Source of the DNA: an uncultured Gammaproteobacteria bacterium
Lineage (GTDB): Bacteria > Patescibacteriota > Patescibacteriia > SG8-24
Length of the DNA stretch: 64,000 bases
Direction: 5' to 3'
Assembly: GCA_964491475.1 (NCBI GenBank)
Contig: CAZBFO010000002.1
Span: 16,501-80,500 of the forward strand
Positions 20,580 to 50,747 of this stretch are shown piece by piece. A model generated the notes under the pieces. It worked only from the letters and a program-made list of their open reading frames with translations, had not been told where the DNA came from and ran no database searches. The number at the start of each line of letters is the position of its first letter. The first letter of the stretch is position 1. The translations under genes were made by a program, and so were the position numbers.

Positions 20580-21710
20580 CTAGCGAGGAGTCTTGTGGGC
20601 GAGGTAGGCGTCGAGCGTCTGCTGCGCGCAGCGCGTCCAGTCGTATTTGGCGACCTGCGACCGTCCTTTGGCGATCAGTTCGGCGCGCAATTCGGTATCG
20701 TCAGCCATTCGCGTCAGGGCCGTGTAGATTTCCGCGGGCTTCTCGGGATCGAAGTAGTGGGCGGCGTCTCCCAGGATTTCCGGCATGCAGCTGGCGTTCG
20801 AGGAGGTCACCGGCAGGCCGTGTTGCATGGCCTCGAGCGGCGGCAGGCCGAATCCTTCGCAGAGCGAGGGGAACACGTAGAACGCGGCGTTTTCGTAGAG
20901 CGTGGCCAGCTCTTCGTCGGTGACGTGGCCGGCGAAGACCACGTTCTGCGCCAGGTCGTTCTCTGCCGCTTCTTTTTTGAGCCGGGCGTAAAAGTAATCC
21001 TCGGCTCCGACCAGCACCAGCTGCCAGTCCGCATGCTCCGCGCGCTTGCGGAACGCGGCGAAAGCCTCGACCAGCCGTTCCAGGTTCTTGTGCGGGTAGG
21101 CGTTGCCCACGTAGAGCGCGAACGGCTTCTTGATATCGGATCGGAGCTGCGCATTTTGCGTCTTTTGCAGCGATGGCGCGCAGGCTTCGTAGGTGACCAC
21201 GACGTTTTTTTGTTTTGCGAACGGGAACCGTTCGAGCATTTCTTTTTTGACGGTTTGGGAAACCGTGATGACCGTCTCCGCATCGGCGATGGCGCGGCGG
21301 ATAACCAGGCGGTAGAACTGGAACTTGATCCAGAAGATCAACGGTCCGAGCCTGCTGGCGCGTGTGGTGGGATGCGAGAGAAGGATCAGGTCGTGAATCG
21401 TGACGACGAACGGCTTGCGGTAGAAAAACGGGACGTTGAAGTGCGGGAAGTGGATCAGGTCCAAGCCATGCTGGTTGAGCAGCTTGGGATACTGCACTTG
21501 CTCGCGCCAGGTGTACCAGGGAAACTCCGCCAGCACCTTGGTGAACCGCGGATTCTTCGGGACGTACGAATCGAAGTTCGATGTCCACAAAAAAATCACG
21601 TAATCGTTGCCGTCGTCGATTTTTTCCAGATGCGAGATCAGCTCGCTGGTGTACCTGCCAAGACCTTTGCCGACGCTTCCGTAGAAGCGGGCGTCGATGC
21701 CGATGCGCAT
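20580..21710 (-). CDS. glycosyltransferase family 4
   Basis: GT4 C-terminal motif (..FVFPSLCEGFGLPPLEAM..). Confidence 0.8.
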   Translation of the reverse strand: MRIGIDARFYGSVGKGLGRYTSELISHLEKIDDGNDYVIFLWTSNFDSYVPKNPRFTKVLAEFPWYTWREQVQYPKLLNQHGLDLIHFPHFNVPFFYRKPFVVTIHDLILLSHPTTRASRLGPLIFWIKFQFYRLVIRRAIADAETVITVSQTVKKEMLERFPFAKQKNVVVTYEACAPSLQKTQNAQLRSDIKKPFALYVGNAYPHKNLERLVEAFAAFRKRAEHADWQLVLVGAEDYFYARLKKEAAENDLAQNVVFAGHVTDEELATLYENAAFYVFPSLCEGFGLPPLEAMQHGLPVTSSNASCMPEILGDAAHYFDPEKPAEIYTALTRMADDTELRAELIAKGRSQVAKYDWTRCAQQTLDAYLAHKTPR

Positions 21711-21904
21711 GGGTGTTTCGGGGTCAGAAATCTGCGTAAAAAGTACCCTTCGTTCACCAGCCCATTATAACAGAAGAAACAAGCGGAAATGGGCTAACTT
21801 ATCCGCAAAAGTGGATAACTTTCAGGGCTGTTTTTTGACCCGGTTTACAGAATTAGCCGCTGTGTTGTAATGGACCCGTAAACAGGATTTTTTCCGTCCC
21901 AAAT

Positions 21905-23743
21905 ATGTGCGGCATCGTGGGATACGTCGGCATGCGCCGAGCCGAAGACGTCCTGGTTGACGGCCTTCGCCGAATGGAGTATCGCGGCTACGACTCTTCC
22001 GGGGTCGCCGCCATCCAAAATGGTCAACTCAAGACCGTCAAAGCGGTCGGTAAAGTGGCTATTTTAGTTGATACCTTAGCCAGAAATCCGTTGGAAGGCT
22101 CTTTGGGAATCGCACATACGCGTTGGGCCACTCATGGCGAACCGACCAGCGAAAACGCACACCCGCACGTTGATTGCCGGGGTACTTTGGCGGTAGTGCA
22201 TAACGGCATCATTGAGAATTACGGGCCCATAAAACAGGCCTTGTCGGTTCGAGGCCACCAATTCCGCTCCGAAACCGATACCGAAGTCGTGGCGCATCTG
22301 ATTGAGGAGTACCATGCGACCATGTCCTTGGACGATGCCTTTTTTGCGGCCCTGAAGGACATCGTCGGCACTTTCGGCATCGCCGTGATTTCATCCACAG
22401 ACCCCAAAAAGATCTATGCCGCCCGTCGGGGGAGCCCATTGGTGGTCGGTTTGGGCAAAAACGGCGACGAGTTCTTCCTGGCGTCTGATCCGTCGGCGCT
22501 GCTCGCCTATACCCGCGACGTCATGTACGTCGAGGACGACGAAGCGGTCATCATGTCGCCCGATGGCGTGGAGACGTTTTCGCTGGAGCGCCTGCGCAAG
22601 CAGAAGACCGTCGAAACCATCAGCTGGACGCTGCAGGAAATCGAAAAAGGCAATCATCCGCACTTCATGCTCAAGGAAATGCATGAACAGCCGGAGGTCA
22701 TCGTGGGCGCGACGCGCGGCCGTCTGGACATCAAGAACGGCATGGCCGTGCTGGGAGGGCTTCGGGACGTCGAGGCGCGGCTGCGGAGCATCGATCGGCT
22801 GACCCTGCTTGCCTGCGGCTCGGCTTACCTGGCCGGTTGCGTCGGCGAGTACATGCTCGAGGAGTACGCGGAGATTCCGACGACGGTCGAGCTCGGTTCA
22901 GAATATCGTTATCGCAAACCCATCATCGACCCGGTGCGCGAAGCGGTCGTCGCCGTCACGCAGAGCGGCGAAACCGCCGACACGCTCGGCGCCATGCGCG
23001 AAGCCAAGGTGAAAGGCGCGTTGGCGCTCGGCATCGTCAACGTCGTCGGCTCGACCATCGCGCGCGAATCTGACGCGGGCGTGTACATGCACGCCGGCCC
23101 GGAAATCGCCGTCGCTTCCACCAAGGCGTTCGTGGCAATGCTGACTTCGTTTGCGCTGCTTACCATGCATCTTGGCCGCCAGCGCCGCATGTCGCAGGCC
23201 ACCGGCACGCGCATCGCCGAAGAGTTGGCGATACTTCCGCAGAAGGTCGCCCGGATCGTGGCGCAGAGCGACCGCATCAAGGCGCTGGCAAAAAAATACG
23301 CGAGTTACCCGAGCATGCTGTACTTGGGCCGCAAGTATAACGCGCCCGTCGCCCTCGAGGGTGCGCTCAAATTGAAAGAGGTCGCCTACGTGCACGCCGA
23401 AGGATACGCGGGTGGCGAGATGAAGCACGGACCGATCGCGCTCCTCGACAAGAATTTTCCCGTCGTCGCCTTGGTCACCAAGGACAGCGTCTACGAAAAA
23501 ATGAAATCCAACATCGAGGAAGTTCGCGCACGACACGCGCCGGTGCTGGCTCTCGCGAGCGAGGGCGACGAGGAAATCCTGCGCCTGTCCGAAGACGTGA
23601 TCTACGTCCCGCGCACCATCGAAATGCTGTCGCCGATCCTGAACGTGATTCCGCTCCAGCTGTTCGCCTATCACATGGCCGTCGCACGCGGCTTCGACCC
23701 CGATAGGCCGCGCAACCTAGCCAAATCAGTGACAGTAGAATAA
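21905..23743 (+). CDS. glmS: glutamine--fructose-6-phosphate aminotransferase
   Basis: N-terminal MCGIVGY Ntn-hydrolase start. Two SIS domains. C-terminal ..SVTVE. Confidence 0.9.
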   Translation: MCGIVGYVGMRRAEDVLVDGLRRMEYRGYDSSGVAAIQNGQLKTVKAVGKVAILVDTLARNPLEGSLGIAHTRWATHGEPTSENAHPHVDCRGTLAVVHNGIIENYGPIKQALSVRGHQFRSETDTEVVAHLIEEYHATMSLDDAFFAALKDIVGTFGIAVISSTDPKKIYAARRGSPLVVGLGKNGDEFFLASDPSALLAYTRDVMYVEDDEAVIMSPDGVETFSLERLRKQKTVETISWTLQEIEKGNHPHFMLKEMHEQPEVIVGATRGRLDIKNGMAVLGGLRDVEARLRSIDRLTLLACGSAYLAGCVGEYMLEEYAEIPTTVELGSEYRYRKPIIDPVREAVVAVTQSGETADTLGAMREAKVKGALALGIVNVVGSTIARESDAGVYMHAGPEIAVASTKAFVAMLTSFALLTMHLGRQRRMSQATGTRIAEELAILPQKVARIVAQSDRIKALAKKYASYPSMLYLGRKYNAPVALEGALKLKEVAYVHAEGYAGGEMKHGPIALLDKNFPVVALVTKDSVYEKMKSNIEEVRARHAPVLALASEGDEEILRLSEDVIYVPRTIEMLSPILNVIPLQLFAYHMAVARGFDPDRPRNLAKSVTVE

Positions 23744-23756
23744 CCATCTTTTTCGC

Positions 23757-24410
23757 TTGCAGCCGCACATGGTCGCCGTACCTAAACCGACTTTTTCCGA
23801 AGAGCGCGCCCTCATTGCGAGAGGCCTCTCTTTGATTGCCGGCGTGGACGAGGCAGGTTGCGGCTGCTGGGCCGGACCGGTGTTCGCCGCCGCCGTCATA
23901 TTGCCGCTCGATTCGCGGATCGGATTGGTGCGTGACTCGAAGACACTGTCGTTGTCGCAACGCGAACGCGTCGTCGCGCGCGTGAAGGAGGAAGCGACGG
24001 CATGGGCTGTCGGCACCGCCAGCGCGGCGGAGATCGATGTCTTGAACATCCGTGGTGCCGGAGCGCTGGCGATGAAACGCGCAGTCGAAGCGTTGGCGCA
24101 ACGTCCGGAGTTCGTGCTGACCGACGCCTTCAATATCCCGCAACTCGGCATCGACCAAAAGAACATCATCCGCGGCGACAGCAAGGTGAAATCGATCGCA
24201 GCGGCGTCAGTCGTGGCGAAAGTCGCGCGTGATTTGCATTTGAAAGAGTTGGACGAGAAGTATCCAGGATACGGATTTGCGACGCATAAGGGGTACGGGA
24301 CGAAAATGCACCAGGCGGCATTGGCAAAACTTGGGCCTTGTGCGGAACACCGGATGTCGTACGCGCCGGTAAAGGCGGCGATGCGAGAACTTGAAAATAC
24401 CTCGTCCTAG
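23757..24410 (+). CDS. rnhB: ribonuclease HII
   Basis: GVDEAGCG active-site motif and overall RNase HII pattern. Confidence 0.85.
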   Translation: MQPHMVAVPKPTFSEERALIARGLSLIAGVDEAGCGCWAGPVFAAAVILPLDSRIGLVRDSKTLSLSQRERVVARVKEEATAWAVGTASAAEIDVLNIRGAGALAMKRAVEALAQRPEFVLTDAFNIPQLGIDQKNIIRGDSKVKSIAAASVVAKVARDLHLKELDEKYPGYGFATHKGYGTKMHQAALAKLGPCAEHRMSYAPVKAAMRELENTSS

Positions 24411-24411
24411 C

Positions 24412-24578
24412 GCGCGCGACGCGAAGCGGAGCGCCGCCCCACCCGGGGGTACAGAATAATTTTTCGCCTGCGGGCGAAAAATTTTCCTCTACCTCGACGA
24501 AAAAATCAGGCTGCGGCCTGATTTTTTGTCTGCGGTAAGCCCCCCGGGTGGGGCGGCGCTCCGCTTCGCGTCGCGCGC
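24412..24578. terminator. 38-bp perfect inverted repeat enclosing two opposed intrinsic-terminator hairpins
   Basis: Arms at 24412-24449 and 24541-24578 are exact reverse complements. Inner hairpins are TTTTTCGCC-TGCG-GGCGAAAAA and AAAAAATCAGGC-TGCG-GCCTGATTTTTT. Lies between the convergent rnhB and the GT4 gene. Confidence 0.6.
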
Positions 24579-29340: not shown

Positions 29341-29370
29341 CCACCGAGTCCCGGAAACGGGACCGTAATG

Positions 29371-29862
29371 GTTTGCCAGACGATCGCTCCGCCTTAAAAA
29401 GCGGGGAGGAAAGTCCGAACACCCTTACCGCGCGCAAGCGCGGCAAGAAGCGGATAGCTGCTAACGGCAGCCGGGAGTAAGGACATCGAACGTTCCCTCG
29501 GGTACCGAAAGGTGACGAGAAAGCGGTTGATGACCCCAAGTCCAGGGAAAGTGCAACAGAGAATACACCGCCCAGCCGTCGCAAGACGGAGGGTAAGGCT
29601 GAAATCGTGGGAGGCCGGAGCAACGGCCCGACCCCTCGCCCCGAAAGAGGCGAACGGGAGCAAGAGCCCACGCGGCATGCCTCGAGAGAGGTACCGTGGA
29701 AAACCCTATCCGGTGCAAGAGCAAATTTGGTAGCTCGCTATTTCTACCGCTGGCCGCCCGAAAGGACGGTTACGTAGAGACGAAGCTCGCGCGCAAGCGC
29801 GGCTCAAGAGAGATGATCGTCCCGCCGCAAGGCGCGACAAAATTCGGCTTATCGGCAAACCA
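29371..29862 (+). ncRNA. rnpB: RNase P RNA (bacterial type A-like)
   Basis: P4 strands GGAGGAAAGTCCG and ACAAAATTCGGCTTATCGG. Also GTGCAACAGAGAA and GGGTAAGGCTGAAA conserved blocks. P1 formed by GTTTGCC/GGCAAAC. Confidence 0.8.
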
Positions 29863-29893
29863 AAAAACCCTTCTCGCAAGAGAGGGGTTTTAC
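29862..29893. terminator. bidirectional terminator shared by rnpB and the convergent CDS
   Basis: A-tract, then CCCTTCTC-GCAA-GAGAGGGG, then TTTT. Confidence 0.55.
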
Positions 29894-30999
29894 GTTCCTG
29901 GAAAAGTTTCGCCGTCGAAGCGGATGGCCATCATCCAGCGGTCCACACGCGCGCCCTTCGGTCCGTCGGTGTCCCACCACAGTTGCTTGAAGCGCGAGAC
30001 GCTCATCTTGCGGCGACCGTCGCCGTCGATCTCCGGGTCCACCATGAAGACGTGCTCGTCGGTCACGTGGTAGATGACGGAGAAGTGGTCTTCGACGGGG
30101 TGCACTCCGGGCACGAACTTCCATCGGCTTGGTCCGTCGGCGGGAGAATACCAGCCAACGATGACCGGCAGGCGTTCCCTGCGCACGAGCCGGCGAACCT
30201 CTTCGAGGCTTGCGGCTGACTTTGCCAGTACGTTTGCGCCCAGCGTTTTCGCGGCTTTTACCAGTCCCGCGTGGTTGGTCCCGTTCTTGGCAGACGTGCT
30301 GCAGAGCTTGCCCAGAAGCAGCTCTTCGTACTCGCGGCCGAAGAACGAACAGACGATTTTTAGGCTCGCGGGTCCGCAGTACCCGGGGCGCTGGCGGAAC
30401 GGCTTCAGCGCCAGCGGCTTGGCAGAACCGGCGGCACGCTGCTGCGCATACCGCTTCCTCTCGGCTTGCGTCGCCAGGTCATGCGCTTCTTCGTACGCCA
30501 TGCCCGACGCCATCGACTGGCGTTCGTGCAGTTCGTGAAAGAGCGTGTTCTCGATCTCGCGCGGATCTTGGCAGGCGTCGAGCCAGACTTCATTTTTCGG
30601 AATGTAGTCGTACACCAAGTCGTGTCCGCCGAAGATGAACCATGGATCGACGTGGCGGCGGATGATGTCGCCGCGAACGTGACGCAGCGTGAGCGTGCCG
30701 CGCTTCTCGCTGCGCAAGATAAGCGCGGGAACAAGACCCTTTTTTGTCAGGTTCTGCTTGAGCCAGGCGCGCGCCTTGTCGCCGCCCAACGAAGCCAGCC
30801 GGCGCTCGGCGCGAAGCACGCGTCGCAGGAACGGCAGCTCCTTCAGGTAGTGCCGGTCGATCCAGATTTCGTCCTTGGGGACGTACGGGTGCGGCGCTGA
30901 ACCTCGCCGTTGCAGGCGCGGTTCGTACTCCTCGACGATGTCGAGGTCGGGGTAGTACTGGCGCAGCCTGAACCCGTCGATGACGCGGATTTTTTTCAT
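29890..30999 (-). CDS. two-domain protein: N-terminal repeat domain of unknown function + C-terminal peptidase C39-like (papain-fold) domain
   Basis: C-terminal GYCGPASLKIVCSFFG (Cys motif) and ..DHFSVIYHVTDEHVFMVDP (His motif) resemble the C39_2/BtrH-like family. The N-terminal half has a duplicated ..[VI]PK[DN]E[IV]W[IL]D.. module. ATG at 30999 lies 2 nt from the trpS stop. Confidence 0.45.
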   Translation of the reverse strand: MKKIRVIDGFRLRQYYPDLDIVEEYEPRLQRRGSAPHPYVPKDEIWIDRHYLKELPFLRRVLRAERRLASLGGDKARAWLKQNLTKKGLVPALILRSEKRGTLTLRHVRGDIIRRHVDPWFIFGGHDLVYDYIPKNEVWLDACQDPREIENTLFHELHERQSMASGMAYEEAHDLATQAERKRYAQQRAAGSAKPLALKPFRQRPGYCGPASLKIVCSFFGREYEELLLGKLCSTSAKNGTNHAGLVKAAKTLGANVLAKSAASLEEVRRLVRRERLPVIVGWYSPADGPSRWKFVPGVHPVEDHFSVIYHVTDEHVFMVDPEIDGDGRRKMSVSRFKQLWWDTDGPKGARVDRWMMAIRFDGETFPGT

Positions 31000-31000
31000 G

Positions 31001-32056
31001 CTAACGGACTCCAATCTTCTTGCGAACGTCCTTCATGGTCGCCTTGGCGACCTTTTGGGCTTTCTTGGCGCCCGCCGCAAGGATACGTTGCACCTTCTCG
31101 GGGTTTTTGGCCAACGCTTCCCGCTTCTTTCGGAAATCGGCGAAATGGTCGGCGATGCGCGTGGCCACCAATTTCTTGAGGTCGCCGTAGCGGATGGGCT
31201 GCGTGGCACGGACGCGATCGGCTTCTTCCTGCGAACCGAAAATCCGAAGTAGCGTCAGCAGGTTCCAGACTCCGGCCAGGCCGCGAAGCCTTTCGTCATC
31301 ATGGCCTTCCGGGTGAGTCTGCATGGCGTGCTCCAACTCTTCCTCGGTCATCGAGATGATGCCAGTCGTCTCCGTCACGGCGCGCTTCAGCTTTTCGCAG
31401 ATGACATCGGGAGAGTCGGTCAGCCCGATGTAGGTCTTGTCGCCGAGCGACTTCGACATCTTCTTGAGAGGGTCGGTGATGCTGCGGAGCTTGGGCACGT
31501 CGGTGAGCATGGCCTTTGTCTCCGGGAAGTACTCGCCGAACTTGTTATTGAAGAAACGTCCGATGTCGCGAGTGAGTTCCACATGCTGCACCTGGTCTTG
31601 GCCTACGGGCACCCACTCCGCCTTGTACATCAAGATGTCGGCAGCTTGGAGCACCGGGTAATCGAACAGGCCCATGTTGATGTTCTGGTTCTGGTGCCCG
31701 GCCTTGTCCTTGAACTGCGTCATTCGTTCTAGGAATGAAACGGGTGTTACGGTATTGAACACCCAGCCCAGCTCGGTGTGCTCCTGTACGTGCGACTGCA
31801 CGAAGAGCGTGGATTTCTTGGGATCGATGCCCAGGGCGATGAGGTCGGCTGCCAAATCCAAAATCTGCCGACGTTTTTCGGCCGGATCGTAGTCGCCCGA
31901 AAGCGAGTGGTAGTCGGCAATGAAGAAATAGCACTTATAGCCCTCATTTTGCAGACGGACCCAGTTGCGGACAGCACCGACATAGTTTCCGAGATGGAGA
32001 CGCCCGGTGGGTTGGGCGCCGGAAAAGACAACTTGCTTGGACTTGGGTAAAGCCAT
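31001..32056 (-). CDS. trpS: tryptophan--tRNA ligase
   Basis: Class I motifs (..FSGAQPTGRLHLGNY.., KMSKS). Start at the internal ATG at 32056 (MALPKSK..). Confidence 0.85.
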   Translation of the reverse strand: MALPKSKQVVFSGAQPTGRLHLGNYVGAVRNWVRLQNEGYKCYFFIADYHSLSGDYDPAEKRRQILDLAADLIALGIDPKKSTLFVQSHVQEHTELGWVFNTVTPVSFLERMTQFKDKAGHQNQNINMGLFDYPVLQAADILMYKAEWVPVGQDQVQHVELTRDIGRFFNNKFGEYFPETKAMLTDVPKLRSITDPLKKMSKSLGDKTYIGLTDSPDVICEKLKRAVTETTGIISMTEEELEHAMQTHPEGHDDERLRGLAGVWNLLTLLRIFGSQEEADRVRATQPIRYGDLKKLVATRIADHFADFRKKREALAKNPEKVQRILAAGAKKAQKVAKATMKDVRKKIGVR

Positions 32057-32086
32057 ACGGGGTGAAGTATAGGGGGAGATGACTAA

Positions 32087-32173
32087 GGTGGCAACGCCGC
32101 GATCGGTAGCTCCACCGCCGCCCACTCCGACTACTCCGACACCCTCACCTTCGTGGCGACGGGGACGTTCTAA
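32087..32173 (+). pseudogene. orphan 3' fragment (29 codons) of the conserved C-terminal domain shared by the two downstream giant proteins
   Basis: Translates to GGNAAIGSSTAAHSDYSDTLTFVATGTF*. This is homologous to the last residues of the CDSs ending at 35947 (..AHSDYEDVLTFIATGTF*) and 39371 (..AHSDYADVLTFVASGTF*). An in-frame stop lies just upstream and there is no start codon. Confidence 0.5.
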
Positions 32174-32193
32174 CCTTGGAAACCAAAAGAACT

Positions 32194-32228
32194 GAAAAAA
32201 CGACCCCTAATGAGAGGGTCGTTTTTTC
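32194..32228 (+). terminator. intrinsic terminator after the gene fragment
   Basis: ACGACCC-loop-GGGTCGT followed by TTTTTT. Confidence 0.5.
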
Positions 32229-32380
32229 ATCGGTTCGGACACTTGTGGATAAGCCATTTTTTTGCTATAATGCAAGGGACATTAAAACTCGACGAGGAGG
32301 TCCAAAAATAAAAAACGTTCCCTTTTGCCCGCATTTTAGACTGAAAAGTCGAAGAAAGCGCGTAAATTAAAGCAAAAAGG

Positions 32381-35300
32381 GTGTACGACGCCATTTTTAT
32401 GAAGGAAGGTCTTTTGCGGGGTGTCAAAAGTCTGGCCAGCCGTTTCCTTGTGGCGCTGGTCATTCTTCAGAATTTGGCGATCGCCATTCCGGCCGCCAAT
32501 GCGGCAGAACAGTCCTCTTATCGTTGGCGCAACGATGACGGTACCGAAGCTACCGCCACCTGGGCTGCCGCCGAAAATACCCCTGCCAACGTGCTCCGCG
32601 GCACGCCCGAGCGCCTTCGTTTTGGCGCCAATCACGAGACTGTCGACGGTGACGTCACCACCTCCGTGCGCCTGAACGCCGGCGACGACGGGTATTTTCC
32701 CAGCGCGCTCGACGGCACTGACCTTTATGTCGCCTCCGCGGAGAGTCCCGCCCGTCTCCTGAAGTTCGACACCACCTCTGGTCCTCCGTATTCCGCCCCC
32801 GGCGAGATCGACCTCGCGACGGGCGAGAACAACGTCTATACGCTCGCGCTCGACACCGCCAACGACCGCGGCTACTTCGTTACCAGTACCGTCCCGAGCA
32901 AGGTGATCAAGGTCCAGCTCTCGACGTTCACCCGTCTCTCCACGCTGACCCTGTCCTCGGGCGACAATTACGTGGCCGGCTCGGTGATCTACAACGGCTA
33001 CCTGTACCTCGTCGCCCGCACCAATCCCGGTAAGCTGCTGAAGGTGAACCTGACCAGCTTCACCGAAGTGACTTCGGACACGCTTAGTCTCGGCGACGAC
33101 CTGACTTACGCCACTGCCAACCCGATCGCCAACGACAACAAGCTGTATTACGCCGACGGCAACAACTACGTCTTCAAGATCGATGTCACCAGTCCGGGTT
33201 CGTCCGCGCCGTCGATCGACACCACGTTGACCATCCCGACGCCGAGTTCGCCGTACAACAACGCCGTCTACACGTACGTCTACGGCGGCATCATCGACAC
33301 CTCCAACGATTACCTTTACGTCAGCAACTATTACGGGCTGATCCATAAGATCGACATCTCGGGCGGAACGACCTTCAGCTACGTCGGCTATACCCCGACG
33401 ATCTCTGCCCTCGACGGCGCGTTCGCCATCGACCAGGCGAGCGGCAAGCTGTATGTCGGGAGCTACAACGCCTACATTTCCAAGATCGATCTCGGCACGT
33501 TCACGCAAGACGCCGCCAACACCTCGCTTAACTACGGGAACATCTACTCGTTGACCGTCTCGGGCGACGGCAGCACGGTCTATGCCCCGTCTTGGGATGC
33601 GCCCGCGCACATTCAGGCAATAGCGACGAGCACGCTCACGCCCACGACCGTGTATGACGGCGCGTCCCGCGGCGACGACGGCGCGAACTCCGCGGTCATC
33701 GACACCGCGACCAATTACATGTACATCGGTACCAGCTACAACGACCGCGTCAACGGCGACGAGATCATCCAGGTGGACCGCAACACCATGACTCGCACCG
33801 GCCGCATCGTCCTGCCGGACGGCTACGAGTCGCTCGGTGCCGCGGCAATCGACGTGACCGACCGCTACGCCTACTTCATCGACTACAATGCGCCGTCGCA
33901 CCTCATTCGCGTGCACCTCGATGCGTTCCCGACTTACGACGTGCTGACGCTGCCGGCGGACGGCCCGTACTACTACCACTACGACGCGATGGCGATCGAC
34001 CCGAACCCGGCGCACCACTATCTCTACCTGGGCTCGTACGGCGTGCCTTCCGTCGTGACCCAAGTCGACCTGAACACCTTCACGCGCGGTTCGACGCTCC
34101 AGCTGCTTTCGTCGCCGATGGAGGATCGCCTTTACAACTCTCTCGCCATCGACACGGTCAATAACAAGCTGTATGCGGGCGTCGGCAGTTCCAGCGGCAG
34201 GGTCGTGCGCATCGACATCACCGGATCGAACCTGACGCGCAACGGCGCCATCAGCACGCCGAGCGACGCCTTTGCCAGCGCCGCGCTCGTCGATGAGGCT
34301 GCAGGGATCCTTTACCTCGGTTCCAACAGTTCCGACATCCTGAAGATCAACGTGGCCAACGGCACGACGTTCTCGATCATGGGCAACGTCTACGTCGGCG
34401 GATTTGAGGATTACGTCTTCAACTTCTCGCTCGACACGGTCAACGGCATGCTTTACGCCGGCGGTGCCGGCACGCCCGGCAAGGTGTTCCGCATCCAGAC
34501 GCCGACCTTCTCCTACGACACGGGCGACGACATCATCGCCCCGAACGGCGAGGAATACGTCTATACGGTAAACGTCGACAGTAACGACGGGAGCGTCTAT
34601 TACACGTCCTACCAGGCTCCGAGCCTCGTCACCAAGGTCACTGCCAACCCCCGGAAACGGTTCCGCCTCGAGTACGCGCCCAAGAGCGGTACCTGTGCCG
34701 CGTCGACCTACACGGCCGTCGCCAACGGCAACGATTGGGAGCCGGCGCTTTCGTCGAACGTGACCAACGGCTCGGCCACGACCAACGTGGTCGGCGGTCT
34801 GACCGATCCCGCGACATACTTCAAGGCCGGTTACGTCATGACCGCCGGCGGTCAGACGCCGGCGCTCCAAGTGGTGAACGATCACTTCTCGGAACTCGAG
34901 TATTCCATCAAGGCCAAGTCGACGGCCGCGCCGGGCGATTACTGCTTCCGTCTGACTGACGCGGGTTCGGCCCTCGCCACGTATACCAACTACGCCGAAG
35001 CGACGCTGAAGACGAACGACGTGACGGTCAGCAACAACGCCACGCTCGGCTCCATGAAGGTCAATGCGACCACCAGCATGACCGTCGGCTTCACGCTGCA
35101 GAACACGCTCGACGGGACGCTCACGGTCACGCTGCCGACCGCCCCGGGCGAGTTCACCATCAACTCCGATCCGCAGCCGTTCCCTTACTCCTCGGCGTGC
35201 TTGTCCGGCTTCGGTCACACCTCGAGCACCGTTTTTGCCACCAAGACCGCGTGTTCCGGCGCCATCTATCTTGGCGGCTTCTCGGTGACCAACCCCTCGT

Positions 35301-35947
35301 CCCCGGGTGCCTATACGATTTCGTGGGTGAACGATGACCCCGGGTACACCATCGTGGCCATCGTCGACTCCGACCAGGTCAACGTGAACGCGCAGGTCTC
35401 GCCGAGCATCACCTTCGACCTCAATGCCAACACCAACAACGCGCCCCAGGCCGCCCCGTACTCGGTCGCGCTCGGCACCCTGACGACCGGCACCGTCAAG
35501 CATTCGAACAACTCCGGCGTCAACTCGATTTGGGCCAACCTGGACACGAATGCCTCTGGGGGAGCGATCGTGACCGTCCTGTCGCAGAACGCGGCCTTGG
35601 CCTCCCAGTCGGTGCCTTCGGACACGATTCCCAATTCTGCCGCTTCGATGGCGGCTGGCGTCGCGAACTACGGCCTCTGCGTGAATACGATCACCGTGCC
35701 TAGCGCTACGGGAGGCACGTTCCAGGCGGCCGCTCCGTATAATCTCGGCACCTGCGATCCCGCCGGATCCACCAACGCCGTGAAGACGCTCTCAATGATT
35801 ACTCCGACCTCGATTCTCAACACCAATTCGAGCGGTGCCTCCGGCGGAGTCGCGGAAATCCTGGTCAACGCGGCCATTTCCAACTCGACGATAGCGCACA
35901 GCGACTACGAGGACGTCCTGACCTTCATTGCGACAGGGACGTTCTAG
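32381..35947 (+). CDS. giant secreted protein: signal peptide + YVTN/NHL-type beta-propeller-like repeats + conserved ~300-aa C-terminal domain
   Basis: Signal peptide ends ..PAANAAEQ. Repeated ~55-aa units (..LxKIDLxTFT.. / ..LYVGS..). The C-terminal third is alignable to the next gene. True start possibly at 32399. Confidence 0.6.
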   Translation: MYDAIFMKEGLLRGVKSLASRFLVALVILQNLAIAIPAANAAEQSSYRWRNDDGTEATATWAAAENTPANVLRGTPERLRFGANHETVDGDVTTSVRLNAGDDGYFPSALDGTDLYVASAESPARLLKFDTTSGPPYSAPGEIDLATGENNVYTLALDTANDRGYFVTSTVPSKVIKVQLSTFTRLSTLTLSSGDNYVAGSVIYNGYLYLVARTNPGKLLKVNLTSFTEVTSDTLSLGDDLTYATANPIANDNKLYYADGNNYVFKIDVTSPGSSAPSIDTTLTIPTPSSPYNNAVYTYVYGGIIDTSNDYLYVSNYYGLIHKIDISGGTTFSYVGYTPTISALDGAFAIDQASGKLYVGSYNAYISKIDLGTFTQDAANTSLNYGNIYSLTVSGDGSTVYAPSWDAPAHIQAIATSTLTPTTVYDGASRGDDGANSAVIDTATNYMYIGTSYNDRVNGDEIIQVDRNTMTRTGRIVLPDGYESLGAAAIDVTDRYAYFIDYNAPSHLIRVHLDAFPTYDVLTLPADGPYYYHYDAMAIDPNPAHHYLYLGSYGVPSVVTQVDLNTFTRGSTLQLLSSPMEDRLYNSLAIDTVNNKLYAGVGSSSGRVVRIDITGSNLTRNGAISTPSDAFASAALVDEAAGILYLGSNSSDILKINVANGTTFSIMGNVYVGGFEDYVFNFSLDTVNGMLYAGGAGTPGKVFRIQTPTFSYDTGDDIIAPNGEEYVYTVNVDSNDGSVYYTSYQAPSLVTKVTANPRKRFRLEYAPKSGTCAASTYTAVANGNDWEPALSSNVTNGSATTNVVGGLTDPATYFKAGYVMTAGGQTPALQVVNDHFSELEYSIKAKSTAAPGDYCFRLTDAGSALATYTNYAEATLKTNDVTVSNNATLGSMKVNATTSMTVGFTLQNTLDGTLTVTLPTAPGEFTINSDPQPFPYSSACLSGFGHTSSTVFATKTACSGAIYLGGFSVTNPSSPGAYTISWVNDDPGYTIVAIVDSDQVNVNAQVSPSITFDLNANTNNAPQAAPYSVALGTLTTGTVKHSNNSGVNSIWANLDTNASGGAIVTVLSQNAALASQSVPSDTIPNSAASMAAGVANYGLCVNTITVPSATGGTFQAAAPYNLGTCDPAGSTNAVKTLSMITPTSILNTNSSGASGGVAEILVNAAISNSTIAHSDYEDVLTFIATGTF

Positions 35948-35985
35948 TGATCGAGGAAAGAGCCAAGGTTGACCAAAAAGCACAC

Positions 35986-36016
35986 AAAAACCGCCCCGTA
36001 CGAGAGCGGTTTTTGT
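35986..36016. terminator. intrinsic terminator between the two giant-protein genes
   Basis: AAAAACCGC-loop-GCGGTTTTT. Confidence 0.55.
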
Positions 36017-36086
36017 GCATAAGTTGGCTTCAAGAGCGCTTATTTTTCTGGTATAATCAAAAGGAAATAAAAGAAAATAGGAGAAT

Positions 36087-39000
36087 ATGAGGAAATTACC
36101 CGGTTTCTCATCGCATCAAGGCCGCCATCACGGAGAGGGGCGGTTTTTAGCTGTTGATAAGATCAAGCATGCGCTGTCTGGGGTAGCTGCAAAGCGGGCC
36201 GTCGCCAAGCTCATGGTTGCCGTGACGATTTTTTCGCAAATGATTGCCGTTGTGCCTTCGACGCAGGCCGCCGAACAGGTCGGTTTGGTCGTCAAACCGA
36301 TGCTTTCGACCGGGGGCGCGCATACGCTGTTTCTGAAGACCGACGGTACCGTTTGGGGATCAGGCTTGAACAGCTCTGGTCAGCTTGGCAACGGAGCCAA
36401 CACGAACGTTTCGACCGCCGTGCAGGTTTCGAGTTTGAACGGAGTGGTGGCCGTCGCGGGCGGACAGTACCATTCGCTGGCCCTCAAGGCCAACGGCACC
36501 GTCTGGGCGTGGGGTGCTAATTCCTCTGGCCAGCTCGGCAACGGTTCCAACACCGGCAGCAACGTGCCCGTGCAGGTTTCTGGCCTGACCGGGGTTATCG
36601 CCGTCGCGGCAGGCGGCAGTCACTCGCTGGCCCTCAAGGCCAACGGCACCGTCTGGGCGTGGGGGTTGAACGGTCAGGGTCAGCTGGGCGACGGTACCAA
36701 CACCGACAGCAACGTGCCCGTGCAGGTTTTCGGCTTGAGCAGCGTGGCCACCGTCGCTTCCGGTCTGTACTTCTCGCTCGCCATCAAGACTGACGGTACG
36801 TCGTGGGGATGGGGCCAGGACAATCGCGGTCAGCTTTGCGACGGTACCAACACCGACAGCAACGTGCCCGTGCAGGCTACCGGAATTACGACCGCTAAGT
36901 CCATCGCGGGCGGCGCCGAACACGCCATCATCGCCCTCGACGACGGAACGGTCAGGTCGTGCGGTCGCAACAACGAGGGTCAGCTGGGCGACGGCACCAA
37001 CACCGACAGCAACGTGCCGGTTACCGTTTCCGGATTGTCCGGAGTCGCTTCGGTTGTCGGCGGCCTATATCATTCCGCGGCGCTCAAGGCCGACGGCACG
37101 GTTCGCACCTGGGGTTGGAACCTGCTGGGTCAGCTGGGCGACGGCACCAACACCGACAGCAACGTGCCGGTGACGCCGACCGGTTTGACCGGCGCGTCCC
37201 AACTCGCGACATCTTCGACTAGCGAGCACGTGATGGCGCTCAAGGCCGACGGGACGATTTGGGGTTGGGCTAACAACGGCGCAGGCGAGTTCGGTAACGG
37301 GAACACTACGGTCACCAACTATCCGGTGCAATCTCTCTTCGACATGTACGTGGGTCCTGCCGGCATCGTCGAGGTGGCTGGCGGCGCCGATCATGCCATC
37401 GCGCTCAAGGTCAACGGAGACGTCTGGGGTTGGGGCTACAACGGTGACGGCGAAATCGGTAACGGTACCAACACCAACAGCTTGACGCCCCTTCAGACTT
37501 CCGTTCTGACGGCGGCCAGGAGCATCGCCAGCGGCGGCAGTCATAATCTCGCGATCGACTCGGACGGCACCGTTTGGGCGTGGGGAGCGAACAATTACGG
37601 CCAGCTCGCTGACGGAAACACGCCTTTTAGCAGCAACGTGCCAGTGCAGGTTTCCGGTCTCACGGATGCCGTTGCGGTGGCCGGCGGTTACTACCATTCG
37701 CTGGCCCTCAAGGCCAACGGCACCGTTTGGGCGTGGGGAGCGAACAATTACGGCCAGCTCGGCGACGGCACCAACACCGATAGCGACGTTCCCGTGCAGG
37801 TGTCCGGACTCACCGACGTCGTAGCCATTGCCTCGGGTTTGCAGAACTCCATGGCGCTCCTTGCAGACGGCAGCGTTTGGATGTGGGGATTCGGCAATGG
37901 CGGACAGCTGGGCAACGGCACCAACGCCCACAGCAACGTGCCGGTACAGGTATCGACGATCAGCGGCGTGCGCGCCATTGCCGACGGTGATGTCGGCGCA
38001 ATGGCCCTGCTTGGCGACGGCACCGTCTGGGCGTGGGGCGTGAACGCCTTCGGCAGCCTTGGCGACGGCACTAACACCGACAGCAATACGCCCGTTGCGG
38101 TCTCCAACGTCGACCTCGCTTCGGATGTCGTCACGCTTGCGGCGGGCGGAGGACACATGGTCGCTATTAAGGCCAACGGCACCGTCTGGGCGTGGGGCCT
38201 CAACGCCAGCGGCGAGCTCGGCGACGGCACCAACACCGACAGGAATGTCCCCGTACAGACCACCGGTATCATCGGCGGGAAAGTCGTCGGGCGCGGCTTC
38301 AGCAGCACTTACGTCGTAAAGAGCAACGGCACGCTCTGGGCGTGGGGCTACAACGGCGACGGCGAGCTGGGCAACGGCACCTTGATCAACAGCAGCAGTC
38401 CGGTGCAGGTGCAGTTCCCGGCGCCTCCGGGGCCGACCGGCAACACGACCGACAACTCCGCGCTGTTCTCGCGCTTGGGCGTGAACGCGAACGCGACGGT
38501 GACGATTGCCTTTACGCTCGCGGACACCCTGTCTTCCCAATTGACCGTGACTTTTGACCCGGCCTTCACCGGCATGAACGTTTCCGGTGCCAGCGCCAAT
38601 ACTCCGAACACCCCCGGCTGCATGAGCAACTTCGTGGCCACCGGTCCGAACAGCTTCACGGCCGACAAAGCGGGCTGCTCCGGCGTCGTCATGATTTCCG
38701 GCATTCAGGTCGTCAATCCACCGACCCCGGGCTCGTACCAGATTTCCTGGACCAATGACGACCCCGGCTACACGTTGGTCGCCATCGTCGATTCCGACCA
38801 GGTGACGGTGAATGCGCAAGTCGCTCCTTCAATCACTTTCGACCTTAACGCGGGGACCACCAACGCGTCCGTCTCGGCACCGTACAGCGTGGCGCTCGGC
38901 AGCCTGACCACCGTCGCGGTCGCTCACTCCGACAACTCCACGGTGAACTCCATCTGGGCCAACCTCGACACCAACGCGGCCGGCGGCGCCATCGTCACCG

Positions 39001-39371
39001 TCCTCTCGGCCAACGCAGCCCTGGCTTCGCTCTCCGTCCCCGGCGACACGGTTCCGAACGCGGCAGTGACGATGTCGGCGGGCACCGCCAACTACGGCAT
39101 TTGCGTGAACTCGGTTTCGCCGCCGAGTGCCGGTTCCGGCACCTTCCAGCCGTCCACCCCTTACGACACCGGCACATGCGACCCGACTGGATCATCGAAC
39201 GCCGTGAAGGCGCTCTCGACCGTGACTCCGACGCAGATTCTCGATACCGCCGCCGGTCCGGTCACCACGGGATCGGCGGAGATTCTCGTGAACGCCACAA
39301 GTTCCACGGCTACCGTTGCCCACTCTGACTACGCCGACGTCCTGACCTTCGTGGCGAGCGGGACGTTCTAG
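36087..39371 (+). CDS. giant secreted protein: signal peptide + ~12 RCC1-type repeats + conserved ~300-aa C-terminal domain
   Basis: AGGAGA RBS. Signal peptide ends ..PSTQAAEQ. Reiterated GQLGDGTNTDSNVPVQVSGL.. units are typical of RCC1/BLIP-II repeats. C-terminus is paralogous to 32381..35947. Confidence 0.7.
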   Translation: MRKLPGFSSHQGRHHGEGRFLAVDKIKHALSGVAAKRAVAKLMVAVTIFSQMIAVVPSTQAAEQVGLVVKPMLSTGGAHTLFLKTDGTVWGSGLNSSGQLGNGANTNVSTAVQVSSLNGVVAVAGGQYHSLALKANGTVWAWGANSSGQLGNGSNTGSNVPVQVSGLTGVIAVAAGGSHSLALKANGTVWAWGLNGQGQLGDGTNTDSNVPVQVFGLSSVATVASGLYFSLAIKTDGTSWGWGQDNRGQLCDGTNTDSNVPVQATGITTAKSIAGGAEHAIIALDDGTVRSCGRNNEGQLGDGTNTDSNVPVTVSGLSGVASVVGGLYHSAALKADGTVRTWGWNLLGQLGDGTNTDSNVPVTPTGLTGASQLATSSTSEHVMALKADGTIWGWANNGAGEFGNGNTTVTNYPVQSLFDMYVGPAGIVEVAGGADHAIALKVNGDVWGWGYNGDGEIGNGTNTNSLTPLQTSVLTAARSIASGGSHNLAIDSDGTVWAWGANNYGQLADGNTPFSSNVPVQVSGLTDAVAVAGGYYHSLALKANGTVWAWGANNYGQLGDGTNTDSDVPVQVSGLTDVVAIASGLQNSMALLADGSVWMWGFGNGGQLGNGTNAHSNVPVQVSTISGVRAIADGDVGAMALLGDGTVWAWGVNAFGSLGDGTNTDSNTPVAVSNVDLASDVVTLAAGGGHMVAIKANGTVWAWGLNASGELGDGTNTDRNVPVQTTGIIGGKVVGRGFSSTYVVKSNGTLWAWGYNGDGELGNGTLINSSSPVQVQFPAPPGPTGNTTDNSALFSRLGVNANATVTIAFTLADTLSSQLTVTFDPAFTGMNVSGASANTPNTPGCMSNFVATGPNSFTADKAGCSGVVMISGIQVVNPPTPGSYQISWTNDDPGYTLVAIVDSDQVTVNAQVAPSITFDLNAGTTNASVSAPYSVALGSLTTVAVAHSDNSTVNSIWANLDTNAAGGAIVTVLSANAALASLSVPGDTVPNAAVTMSAGTANYGICVNSVSPPSAGSGTFQPSTPYDTGTCDPTGSSNAVKALSTVTPTQILDTAAGPVTTGSAEILVNATSSTATVAHSDYADVLTFVASGTF

Positions 39372-39386: not shown

Positions 39387-39418
39387 TGCGAAAACCGCTC
39401 CGAAGGGAGCGGTTTTCG
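39387..39418. terminator. bidirectional terminator
   Basis: GCGAAAACCGCTCC-GAAG-GGAGCGGTTTTCGC between convergent genes. Confidence 0.65.
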
Positions 39419-44636: not shown

Positions 44637-45446
44637 GTGTCAACGGTGGGGGCGAAGTTCTGCTATACTGTGCCTATGCCTACGTACGACTTGGATTTGG
44701 ACAAACCGCTTGAAGAAAAGAGAAAGGGCGGCGGCTGGGGTTGTGCCATCGGCGGCTGGTCGGTGTTCGTGCTCGTTGCGGCGCTGACCCTCTTCGTCGG
44801 GTATCGAACATGGTTCTATTACACCAAGCTTCGTTCGGGACAGATAGTGGATCTGCCGCAGTTCAAGGATCGCCTCACGGCCATCGCGTCGCCAGCCGGC
44901 GTGACGCCGGTGACGGAAGCGGCACGCAGCGAGGTGGAACTTGCCGCCGCGCCGGCACAGGGTCCGGAGCAGCGAGACGCGAAGCTCGTGGTGGTGGAAT
45001 TTGCCGATTTTCAATGTCCGTATTCAAAGGACGAGGCTCTGGTGGTGCGCACTTTGATGCAAAAATACGGCGACAAAGTACGCTTTGAGTTCCGCGACTA
45101 TCCGATTCAGCAGCTGCATCCCGATGCGGTCAATGCGGCCCTCGCCGCCCGTTGCGCGCAGGAGCAGGGAAAGTTCTGGGAATATCACGACAAGCTGTTC
45201 GTCAACTCGCCGACGCTTACCAAGCAGATGCTGCTGACGTATGCTGCCGAGATCGGCTTGGACGACGAGCAATTCACCAGATGCCTCTCGTCGCAGCGCT
45301 ACCGGCCGTCTGTCGAAAAGGACATGTCCAAGGCACAGACGTTGGGCATCGAAGGCACGCCGACCTTTTACCTCAACGGAAACCGCGTCGACGGCGCCAT
45401 TCCGATGGACGTGTTCGAGAACTTGATTCAGAAAATCACCAAATAG
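44637..45446 (+). CDS. DsbA-family thiol:disulfide oxidoreductase (membrane-anchored)
   Basis: TM anchor. CPYS active-site motif within a thioredoxin-fold context (..VVEFADFQCPYSKD..). Alternative start at 44676. Confidence 0.7.
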   Translation: MSTVGAKFCYTVPMPTYDLDLDKPLEEKRKGGGWGCAIGGWSVFVLVAALTLFVGYRTWFYYTKLRSGQIVDLPQFKDRLTAIASPAGVTPVTEAARSEVELAAAPAQGPEQRDAKLVVVEFADFQCPYSKDEALVVRTLMQKYGDKVRFEFRDYPIQQLHPDAVNAALAARCAQEQGKFWEYHDKLFVNSPTLTKQMLLTYAAEIGLDDEQFTRCLSSQRYRPSVEKDMSKAQTLGIEGTPTFYLNGNRVDGAIPMDVFENLIQKITK

Positions 45447-45449: not shown

Positions 45450-47546
45450 ATGCAGTTGCCCGGCAATCTCAAATTCCGGAAGAAACAGGCAGCGCTCGGG
45501 CTTTTTGCAGCCTGGCAGATGCTGGTTGCCCTCGTAGCCTTCGCGCCGATTTTCGTCGCCGCACCGGCCGGAGCGCAGAAGCCGGCCACTTGTTTCATGC
45601 GGGTGGAGTGTCTCGACTTGAATACCAAGGGCAATTGCGACAAGGAGCATTGCTTTGAGCCCCGCAAGGAATGCCCCGATGGTCAGGGCCTCTGTTATGC
45701 CAACCCGCCGGCAGTGCCTCTGGTCATCGCCATCGGCGGAAAGACCCAGGTTCTGGATTTGAGCGACTATATCGCCATCGTTTTCAATTTCGGCGCGATC
45801 GCCGCAGGCACCGTCGCCACCGTCATGTTCATGGTGGGGGGCTTCCAGTATCTGACCGCAGGCGGTGACGCCGGCCGTGTCGGTGCAGGAAAAAAGCGCA
45901 TTGTCGACGCGCTGGTCGGTCTGGCATTGGTGCTCGGTTCGGTCATCATGCTGCGCACCGTGAACCCCGACATTCTCCGTCTGCAGATGCCGAAAATCGA
46001 AATCGTGAAGAAAAAGCTGTTTGTCGGCTGCAACCTCTTTGAAATGAAGGCCAAATGCGGCGACCCTTTCACCATCGTGCAGATTCCCGGCGCCAACGAG
46101 TCCATGCCTATCGACAAGCAGTTCAAACTTGGGACGGCCGACGATGTCAAACAGAAGAAGGGGATCATCTGCCGCGGCATGAGCTGCGGCATGGCGGGAT
46201 TCGATGACGGCCTGTTCCGGTGCCAAAGAGACCGGACCTCAACCGAAAAGCCGTCAGAAACGCCGACGCAATGCGGCGGCCCGCCGGCGAAACCGTACAT
46301 CTGCAAGGAGTGTGCGGGTTGGGGCGGGGACTGCGGCAGGCAGGGCAAAAGCGACGACTGCTGCACCGGTTTCTGCGGTACGCGTTCGACCGCCTTGGCG
46401 ACGAAGGACGTGGTCACTTCCGCAGCCGGCGGCCTTGCGGCCGGTGCCGCTACGACCGCAGGCAAAGGCCTCTGCACCAACGGCGAAACCGGCGTGAACT
46501 GCGGCGGCAATGGGGAATGCAGGACCGGCCGTTGCGAGACGCGCGGATTCCACACCTGCTCCTCCGGCTTGACCGGTGCCGCATGCGATAACGCCACGCA
46601 GTGCTCTTCAGGATACGCCTGTCCGCAGGTCACGGGCCTGTTCATCTGCACTCCAAAGGTGCCCGGCGGCTATTGCCTGAACGAAAATGATTGCCCCGAG
46701 GGGTACTTCTGTCCCCGCGACAATTGCGGCATCGGCTCCGCTGCGCAGAATGCAGTGAGCTCTGCGCGAAACGCTGCATCGAGCGCTGGACAGGCTATCA
46801 TCGCCGCGGCCCAAAAGGCCTACGACGCGGCGGACAAGGCGCAGACTGACGGAAGTTACACCTGTTTGGAAGGCATCAGGAAGGGCAAAAAGGTGTCGCT
46901 GTTCGAACAAGGCCAGGCGTGTGCGAACCAGCCAGGACTGGTGGCCGCCGTGGCAGCGGCAAAGACAGCCCTTGTGGCTGCCAAGGCACAGTACGGTATC
47001 GGCACGATTTACGGCAGCGTCGCATCGAGCGGTGCCAACGCTCTTGCCGAGACGGTCAACTGCGGTCGTTGCCGTCGGCGCGACATGCCGAGTGATTGCG
47101 GCAGCGACACCGACTGCAATTCCCTCGGCCAGAAAGCAAGATGCGTGACTACGGACCGCGGAATCAAGGTCTGCACCACCGGCGAAGACGGCTCTCCTTG
47201 CCTGAAGAGCAGCGATTGCGACGACGGCTTTTGCGTCGCCGCAGTCACCAGCATCTTGCCGGGCGGCGGGAACCCCGGCCTTTGCAGCAAGGGCCTGGTC
47301 GGCGAACGCTGCAGCAAGGCCGAGGAGTGCAAGACGAAGCATTGCTACGTCGATGACGGCATCTCGGCGACCCGCGAATTCCTGAAAACCATCGGAAGTT
47401 GGGGCGAGGCCAAGTACGGCTTCTGCGTTTCGGGCGAAGCGGGGTCCGGCTGCAATCCGGCCAAGCAGGACCAGGATTGCGAGCCCAATCTGAAGTGCAG
47501 TCCGCAGGCGCACATGTGCATCGTGAGCAAAAACGCTTGCGGATAA
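45450..47546 (+). CDS. Cys-rich secreted/membrane protein with VirB2/TrbC-like two-helix N-terminal module
   Basis: Dozens of Cys in repeated C-x(n)-C modules. N-terminal two hydrophobic helices separated by a G-rich loop (..[37 protein letters not shown]..). Start is 4 nt after the dsbA-like stop. Confidence 0.6.
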
Positions 47547-50704: not shown

Positions 50705-50716
50705 GGTTCGTGAAAA

Positions 50717-50741
50717 GCAGGCAAAAATGCCTGTTTTTTTC
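50717..50741 (+). terminator. intrinsic terminator after uvrA
   Basis: CAGGCA-AAAA-TGCCTG followed by TTTTTTT. Confidence 0.7.
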
Positions 50742-50747
50742 AAGGGC

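Follow-up and report, generated by a model that had tools for sequence, protein, structure and literature searches.

Giant propeller-headed proteins of candidate phyla radiation bacteria carry a putative donor-strand-exchange pilin module

Two giant secreted proteins with a shared pilin-like module

The stretch of DNA analyzed here (the window: 64,000 nucleotides, positions 16,501 to 80,500 of contig CAZBFO010000002.1 in GenBank assembly GCA_964491475.1) comes from an uncultured bacterium that GTDB places in the Patescibacteriota, i.e. the candidate phyla radiation (CPR), and it encodes two consecutive plus-strand genes for giant secreted proteins of 1188 amino acids (aa; gene 1, 32381..35947) and 1094 aa (gene 2, 36087..39371). 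We propose, with a probability of roughly 0.6, that these are giant adhesin-type subunits of a divergent donor-strand-exchange pilus similar to the Pam pili of CPR bacteria, in which a shared C-terminal module would donate and accept a β-strand while the N-terminal β-propeller heads would bind. Both genes had been recognized in an initial reading of the sequence (the first-pass annotation), and a listing of open reading frames (ORFs) confirmed them; gene 1 has this length when read from a GTG at 32381, the NCBI call being an ATG at 32399 that yields 1182 aa.

The last 308 aa of the two proteins align with 60% identity and a single gap (BLASTP E 1e-104), which bears out the alignable C-terminal region, the conserved blocks and the terminus AHSDYxDVLTF[IV]A[ST]GTF preceding the stop codon (...TFIATGTF in gene 1 and ...TFVASGTF in gene 2) that had been reported in the first-pass annotation. 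The shared block is 63% identical in nucleotides and 48% at third codon positions, indicating that the two genes are old paralogs and, as had been surmised, not products of a recent duplication. Neither Pfam nor a search of PDB sequences returned a match to this tail. AlphaFold2 (AF2), provided with an alignment of the family, modeled it with a mean predicted local distance difference test (pLDDT) score of 94.8 as an N-domain (module residues 2-115), a conserved linker (116-137) and a C-domain (138-308), so that what had been taken for one domain of about 300 aa is really two all-β domains and the linker joining them. The immunoglobulin-like (Ig-like) N-domain spans 35021..35365 in gene 1, as delimited by the AF2 strands of module residues 2-115 and a profile match, and 38445..38789 in gene 2; it is followed on the plus strand by the putative donor strand (DSDQVNVNAQVSP, 35366..35404, and DSDQVTVNAQVAP, 38790..38828) and by the C-domain, the putative strand acceptor (35405..35944 and 38829..39368). 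Both proteins contain the cysteine pairs noted earlier, one in each domain (Cys940/Cys958 and Cys1100/Cys1125 in gene 1, Cys845/Cys864 and Cys1006/Cys1031 in gene 2), and module C220 is invariant, and C245 nearly so, across the family. The linker, with the pattern D-x-D-Q-V-x-V-x-A-x-V (DQVxVNAQV), shows alternating hydrophobic residues and is conserved more strongly in the family than any other stretch; its residues 116-129 are coil in the AF2 monomer, as would be expected of a strand that pairs in trans. Each of the two tails therefore looks like a full pilin module with the grammar of donor-strand exchange, namely an Ig-like N-domain, a linker strand and an acceptor C-domain, and the earlier label of an "anchoring or export module" proved too vague.

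The middles of the two proteins had been described as unrelated, and indeed BLASTP aligns nothing beyond the tail and a weakly similar signal-peptide region. The head of gene 1 (32642..34666, plus strand) comprises 14 YVTN/NHL-like repeats of about 48 aa (..aiD..n..lY....g.i.kidl.tFt..) in clear register; the propeller-type repeats of the first-pass annotation are thus present, though they range from about 45 to 57 aa where about 55 had been given, and their Pfam β-propeller match is sub-threshold (E 1e-4). From the repeat pattern this head presumably forms two 7-bladed YVTN/NHL-like propellers; a sequence search of the PDB with it gave noise only, and a full-length relative of gene 1 is found in another CPR genome (locus L027, E 3e-86). 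Between this head and the module lies a linker domain (34667..35020, plus strand; RFRLEYAPKSG...YCFRL...YTNYAEATL) that is matched in motif to the N-terminal SYRWRNDDGTEATATW segment, and its motifs recur in protein A of locus L002. The head of gene 2 (36288..38411, plus strand) consists of 14 RCC1 repeats by Pfam, where about 12 had been counted, forming two RCC1-like propellers, with scores above the gathering thresholds for RCC1 (PF00415, E 2e-136, 444.7 bits) and WD40_RLD (PF25390, E 1e-167, 558.3 bits).

Both proteins begin with a Sec signal peptide, judged by eye from a basic n-region, a hydrophobic h-region and an AxA-type site. By inspection, cleavage is predicted after residue 41 in gene 1 (32381..32503; PAANA/AEQ, i.e. 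ANA|AEQ) and, following a long n-region, after residue 61 in gene 2 (36087..36269; PSTQA/AEQ, i.e. TQA|AEQ). The common AEQ noted earlier is therefore real, while the claim that these regions are alignable holds only weakly when they are compared on their own (BLASTP E 0.012).

A CPR-restricted family with exchangeable heads

A database search with the tail recovered 347 relatives, nearly all of them Patescibacteria metagenome proteins of 260-390 aa that carry no annotation, and the terminus ...TF[IV]ATGT[FY] was present in 120/120 among the matches listed. Scanning one genome per species then gave 76 loci, all of them from CPR-type metagenome-assembled genomes (MAGs) belonging to Paceibacteria, Uhrbacteria, Nomurabacteria, Dojkabacteria/WS6 and Minisyncoccia; a relic of one further member lies in the window itself (see below). 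The named database matches, like all 76 loci, are Patescibacteria-type MAGs (some automatic third-party annotation labels among the matches appear unreliable), and from this exclusive distribution of homologs the organism is judged to be a CPR-type bacterium. Its members fall into small (257-290 aa), medium (340-420 aa) and large (450-2582 aa) size classes; in 123/125 ORFs of the loci the C-domain stops at the last residue of the protein, and the terminal aromatic residue is conserved.

The earlier proposal of a modular family, in which the C-terminal module stays constant and the heads are exchanged, is upheld by the variety of heads on other large members, which are NHL, DUF5122-propeller or unassignable, and by the tandem giants of locus L002 (189-4754, 1521 aa; 4920-8741, 1273 aa). 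These two genes have unrelated heads and a common 949-nucleotide 3' block that is 98.8% identical in nucleotides and begins sharply, exactly at the module boundary, a configuration that shows exchange of the module between heads and indicates a recent gene conversion or module duplication. The C-domains of the large proteins do not form a clade of their own: each is nearest to its tandem partner and then to medium operon pilins, and similarity is highest among members from one genome. Outside the pair itself, both window modules are closest to P0004, a medium operon pilin of locus L001. The window proteins and P0004 are on separate NCBI contigs (of 386 kb and 129 kb), both also recovered in Logan run SRR12313479, and positions 19905-24441 of the window are 100% identical to a contig from this run, which is the sequencing run of L001.

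Conserved operons and subunit classes

Across the loci the family genes recur in the order small member, two-domain member, a protein of about 340 aa with a signal peptide and a transmembrane (TM) segment, and often a giant TM protein. The operon of L001, for example, lies on a contig from a related organism and encodes first a 263-aa and then a 346-aa member, followed by a protein of 334 aa that has a signal peptide and C-terminal TM helix and by a TM-anchored giant of 1875 aa. The 334-aa protein (3682-4683) matches the Pfam domain WxLIP_PGBD (PF06030, DUF916) with 32.1 bits, above its gathering score of 27.3. A hidden Markov model (HMM) iterated from it found 71 such chaperone-like ORFs in the 76 loci (L001 3682-4683, L008 10634-11662 and 69 further locus ORFs), nearly always directly downstream of family genes; a chaperone-like gene is adjacent in 61/72 loci that hold a family member, and several loci carry two. 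Half of those compared (14/28) match PF06030 at E<=0.01 with no competing family, and the CPR chaperone-like profile, used as a positive control, recognizes the Firmicute WxLIP of the reference Lactiplantibacillus cluster (L078; 10873-11907).

The distribution of the three parts of the module defines subunit classes. The donor motif is absent from the small proteins (0/24), which would accordingly be acceptor-only, and it is present in most medium proteins. The giant TM-anchored operon proteins have the N-domain and donor strand and then diverge, with no C-domain, and would thus be donor-only; we regard them as candidates for pilus terminators or anchors. Other giants lack the donor strand (acceptor-only) and are the first genes of their operons in L013, L025, L029 and L034, whereas giants with the full module of N-domain, donor strand and C-domain stand outside operons, singly or in tandem, as in the window genes, the L002 pair, L027 and the L059 pair.

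Two further observations concern these operons. The L001 giant (4850-10477) has its TM helix in the C-terminal part, and several among it and 12 similar ORFs (745-2017 aa) run into Cys-rich CxxGDGC repeats and fn3 or CarboxypepD_reg domains. Some first-position operon proteins of 351-366 aa likewise have no donor strand.

Relationship to Pam pili and to WxL clusters

The Pam pili of the saccharibacterium Ca. Mycosynbacter amalyticus, for which cryo-electron microscopy structures have been presented, are built from PamA and PamB, which have a signal peptide, a nine-strand N-terminal sandwich domain, a linker strand donated to the neighboring subunit, a truncated Ig-like C-terminal domain acting as strand acceptor, and paired cysteines (Troman et al., bioRxiv 10.64898/2026.03.03.709456). 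The tip subunit, PamT, has a single domain and no linker, PamC and PamD are PapD-like chaperones with a C-terminal TM helix, and the terminator PamR is anchored by a TM segment and supplies an N-terminal strand. Pam pili are exclusive to CPR, mainly Saccharimonadia and Microgenomatia, and the preprint states that their mode of interaction with the surface of the host is not known (bioRxiv 10.64898/2026.03.03.709456).

The subunit classes predicted from this system are those seen in our family: the small acceptor-only proteins are like PamT, the donor-only TM giants are like the terminator or anchor PamR, and all three parts are present in both window proteins, which supports the Pam reading. 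A scan of the whole family against NCBIfam release 20 (June 2026; cutoffs of 55 bits for NF058581 and of 240 bits) adds direct matches. The model CPR_Pam_pilin_C (NF058581) was matched by 4/122 family members (best E 4.6e-8) and by four of 10 further, more divergent members, with E-values including 4.6e-8, 4.4e-5 and 0.007, and in every case the last position of the model falls on the last residue of the protein. The PamT model (NF058579) was matched by the small proteins of L001 and L006 (E 1.5e-8 and 2.7e-9). The first-pass annotation had considered the C-domain unassignable to any known family, which remains true for Pfam, while some members of the family significantly match these NCBIfam models.

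The WxLIP match raised the question of whether the C-domain might itself be a Firmicute WxL domain, the more so as the family has a conserved domain that is always C-terminal, small and large forms, and clustering with a WxLIP (PF06030) protein, the last feature being found outside the window. For comparison an authentic WxL set was assembled by rebuilding the bait from the supplementary alignment of Siezen et al. 2006 (by optical character recognition) and taking 150 diverse representatives. None of 122 family members matched PF13731 (WxL) at E<=10; hhalign comparisons of the C-domain with WxL gave probabilities of 0.06-1.5%; and reciprocal searches with hmmsearch --max were no better than negative controls. 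The Trp-x-Leu motifs are likewise absent, the CPR consensus reading ...GGAVVTV... and ...LTFIATGTF where WxL has GWxL and WTL. With both the profile-profile and the reciprocal HMM comparisons non-significant, we reject this identification: on sequence evidence the CPR partner protein is a homolog of WxLIP and the C-domain is not a detectable WxL domain. In the literature library that was searched we found no paper linking WxL or DUF916 with Patescibacteria, and the link is absent from the Pam preprint and from the WxL papers. The "peptidoglycan-binding domain" proteins that are highly expressed in Paceibacteria (Kuroda et al. 2024) were also considered as WxLIP-like and dropped, since the one traceable entry has 693 aa and the supplement contains no WxL or DUF916 term.

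The AF2 model of a small WxL protein (P0122, pLDDT 76) had no significant PDB neighbors, and its Foldseek match list did not overlap with that of our module. As a side observation, this model has an N-terminal β-strand (residues 37-48) followed by a disordered Pro-rich linker (52-68, pLDDT < 50) and then the domain, an arrangement reminiscent of an N-terminal extension donor strand, and its best, weak PDB neighbor (E 0.009) is the donor-strand pilin EcpA.

Weighing the proposed pilus against other explanations

From the analogy with the Pam system we infer that the modules exchange strands, that the proteins become part of a filament and that the heads serve in binding. Each protein would be exported by Sec, and its linker strand DQVxVNAQV would, in the manner of PamA/PamB, enter the C-domain of the subunit before it; its own C-domain, whose last strand is the C-terminus of the protein, would take up the strand of the subunit that follows. 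Membrane-anchored PapD-like chaperones, encoded at another place in the genome, would assist assembly, and the outcome would be a filament bearing alternative, interchangeable binding heads.

Several results weigh against this proposal. All matches of the family to the Pam models are far below the NCBI cutoffs, only 2/11 small proteins match the PamT model, the chaperone-like set matches none of the Pam models, and the window proteins themselves give no match to them even at E<=10. The Pam preprint therefore amounts to a prior description of the family only in part, the match being remote, below cutoff and absent for the window proteins. Foldseek against a copy of the PDB that does not include the PamA/B structures (25PZ/25QA) returned only generic Ig-like proteins for the module, pilins and adhesins among them, with a TM-score below 0.3 over the whole module. 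The family occurs in Paceibacteria, Uhrbacteria, Nomurabacteria and Dojkabacteria-type genomes, lineages other than the Saccharimonadia and Microgenomatia in which the preprint mainly reports Pam. The Pam-like operon context, seen in 61/72 loci, does not extend to the window, in whose 64 kb we found no chaperone-like or small pilin gene; one such operon (L001) is present in the same sample, and its origin from the same genome is unproven, as the GC and tetranucleotide composition of L001 and the window is compatible with one genome and does not discriminate. Finally, a head of about 1,000 aa might sterically hinder packing into a filament.

The heads could, alternatively, be displayed on the surface without polymerization, the C-domain being held permanently by the membrane-anchored WxLIP homolog, a β-strand of which would complete it and so tether the heads to the cell, a mechanism already put forward for Firmicute WxLIP and large WxL proteins. 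The partner is indeed a homolog of Pfam WxLIP_PGBD, the composition of the CPR clusters, two small proteins, one WxLIP and one large protein with a C-terminal domain, equals the published definition of a WxL cluster, and the prediction for WxLIP is that one of its strands enters WxL; yet the C-domain has no detectable WxL similarity and no Trp-x-Leu motifs, the donor strand retained by the window proteins would be pointless in a domain held only by a chaperone, and family members match Pam pilin models, all of which makes simple tethering unlikely, if still the strongest of the rivals. A two-dimensional surface lattice such as an S-layer, with the giant proteins as lattice-anchored appendages, would account for abundant-looking, paralogous, secreted, all-β proteins with a strictly C-terminal conserved domain, and a few chaperone-like proteins give a noise-level match to a "putative S-layer protein" model (E 0.054). 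However, the Pfam and NCBIfam scans found no S-layer, SLH-type or cell-wall-binding module in the tail or the family, so that the standard module of this kind entertained in the first-pass annotation did not materialize, and the acceptor-only, donor-plus-acceptor and donor-only classes fit a linear polar polymer and not a lattice; we hold this explanation to be quite improbable. Least probable of all, and in our opinion barely credible, is outer-membrane targeting, whereby the C-terminal ...GTF would be the β-signal of an outer membrane protein and the tail would anchor the protein as a membrane barrel or in the way of an autotransporter. The terminal Phe and the alternating hydrophobic residues of the last strand are in keeping with this, but the AF2 model shows two soluble β-sandwich-like domains and not a transmembrane barrel, and on that basis we rejected the β-signal reading of the terminal Phe; CPR bacteria are moreover generally regarded as having no classical outer membrane.

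Architecture of the locus and neighboring genes

Genes 1 and 2 look like separate transcription units, as each has its own extended -10 box upstream (TGCTATAAT, 32263..32271, for gene 1, a consensus match only, and TGGTATAAT, 36049..36057, for gene 2; both on the plus strand), gene 2 has a strong Shine-Dalgarno sequence (AGGAG, 36079-36083, plus strand), and hairpins with T runs flank both. The latter include a terminator-like hairpin of 17 bp, with A and T runs, in the intergenic space (35981..36019) and a terminator-like hairpin read from the sequence 3' of gene 2 (AAAACCGCTCCGAAGGGAGCGGTTTT, approximately 39391..39417, plus strand). Between the divergent trpS gene and gene 1 lies the relic of a third family member (32084..32173, plus strand), comprising its last ~29 codons in translation (GGNAAIGSSTAAHSDYSDTLTFVATGTF, then the stop codon) with in-frame stops upstream and 77% identity to the gene 1 tail in tblastn. 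It is still followed by its terminator, a bidirectional terminator-like hairpin with flanking A and T runs (32193..32229). This third copy and its terminator point to gene turnover at the locus and suggest that the family members here are subject to birth-and-death evolution.

Several other features of the window may be recorded. Upstream, the class A bacterial RNase P RNA lies at 29368-29867 on the plus strand (118 bits, gathering score 100), where only spurious ORFs had been listed, and the product of the second gene upstream of gene 1 (29890-31014, minus strand; 374 aa) has a C39-type peptidase domain (E 1.5e-12) and no ABC-transporter part. Downstream, a 698-aa secreted, very Cys-rich protein (45450-47546, plus strand) has a weak match to a type IV secretion system pilin (T4SS-pilin, PF18895) near its N-terminus and is adjoined by a gene for a DsbA-like thioredoxin (44637-45446). 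The latter fits extracytoplasmic disulfide formation, and the Cys pairs of the pilin modules would need such disulfides too. Two more secreted proteins with clear signal peptides and no Pfam match are encoded at 57821-59572 (plus strand, 583 aa) and 54303-55481 (minus strand, 392 aa). A low-GC island (50705-52416; 47.7% against ~60% for the window) carries small ORFs of 129, 138 and 151 aa, all three on the plus strand; the second of them has an XRE-type helix-turn-helix motif, and the island is possibly acquired DNA or a toxin-antitoxin-like module. At 61555-61630 (minus strand) ARAGORN predicts a tRNA-Ile with the anticodon UAU, an uncommon bacterial way to read AUA.

Implications and comparison with known systems

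The kind of pilus considered here has itself been described recently; new beyond the Pam preprint are the giant fusions of pilins with propeller heads and the WxLIP homology of the chaperone-like partner. On a broader and distinctly tentative view, which we would put at somewhat short of even odds, CPR bacteria outside Saccharimonadia and Microgenomatia would have a divergent Pam-type pilus with exchangeable giant heads (RCC1, YVTN/NHL, DUF5122 propellers and others) on a constant module, amounting to a cassette system for recognition of hosts or surfaces. The same view holds that, given that the CPR chaperone-like protein is a WxLIP homolog, the WxL/WxLIP clusters of Firmicutes and the Pam pili of CPR may be two branches of one old monoderm system in which a membrane-anchored chaperone works by strand complementation. 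How CPR bacteria recognize and hold their hosts is largely unknown, and the propeller-headed pilin modules offer a concrete candidate for the recognition step. They would also widen the range of the Pam-type system, adding major CPR lineages in which sequence searches had not placed it, and the WxLIP link supplies a mechanistic hypothesis, chaperone-style strand complementation, for the WxL clusters of enterococci, listeriae and lactobacilli.

Among known systems, the Pam pili (PamA/B/E pilins, PamT tip, PamC/D chaperones and PamR anchor) have in common with our family the restriction to CPR, the Sec signal peptide, two all-β domains joined by a conserved linker strand, the paired cysteines, an operon that encodes a small acceptor-only subunit, one or two TM-anchored two-domain chaperone-like proteins and a TM-anchored donor-only protein, and the significant in-register matches of some members to Pam models. 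They differ in that the window genes have β-propeller heads of ~800 aa N-terminal to the module and stand outside any operon, and the preprint mentions no adhesins, propellers or giant pilin fusions (bioRxiv 10.64898/2026.03.03.709456). The WxL/Csc clusters of Firmicutes, whose WxLIP consists of DUF916, DUF3324 and a TM segment, agree with the CPR operons in cluster composition, in the WxLIP-homologous partner of ~340 aa with a signal peptide, two β domains and a C-terminal TM helix, and in having a C-terminal anchoring domain on large proteins with variable heads. They differ in the Trp-x-Leu motifs missing from the CPR C-domain, in the second WxLIP domain (PF11797), which was not detected in the CPR chaperone-like proteins, and in the LPxTG partner, none having been seen in the operons examined, where a giant TM protein takes that position.

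The third comparison is with FimH and PapG, the adhesins of chaperone-usher pili, for which sequence similarity to our family was not detected in Pfam and PDB sequence searches. Chaperone-usher pili rely on an outer-membrane usher and a soluble periplasmic chaperone. The CPR system is taken to have neither outer membrane nor usher, though no search aimed at an usher was made, and the CPR chaperone-like proteins are membrane-anchored by a C-terminal TM helix, as are PamC/D. The likeness lies in the combination of an N-terminal receptor-binding part with a C-terminal pilin domain completed by a strand of the neighboring subunit, and in the acceptor-only CPR giants that come first in their operons, like tip adhesins. 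In the CPR family, however, the donor strand is an internal linker and not an N-terminal extension, and since the window proteins keep a donor strand of their own they would, unlike FimH and PapG, not be restricted to the tip of the filament.

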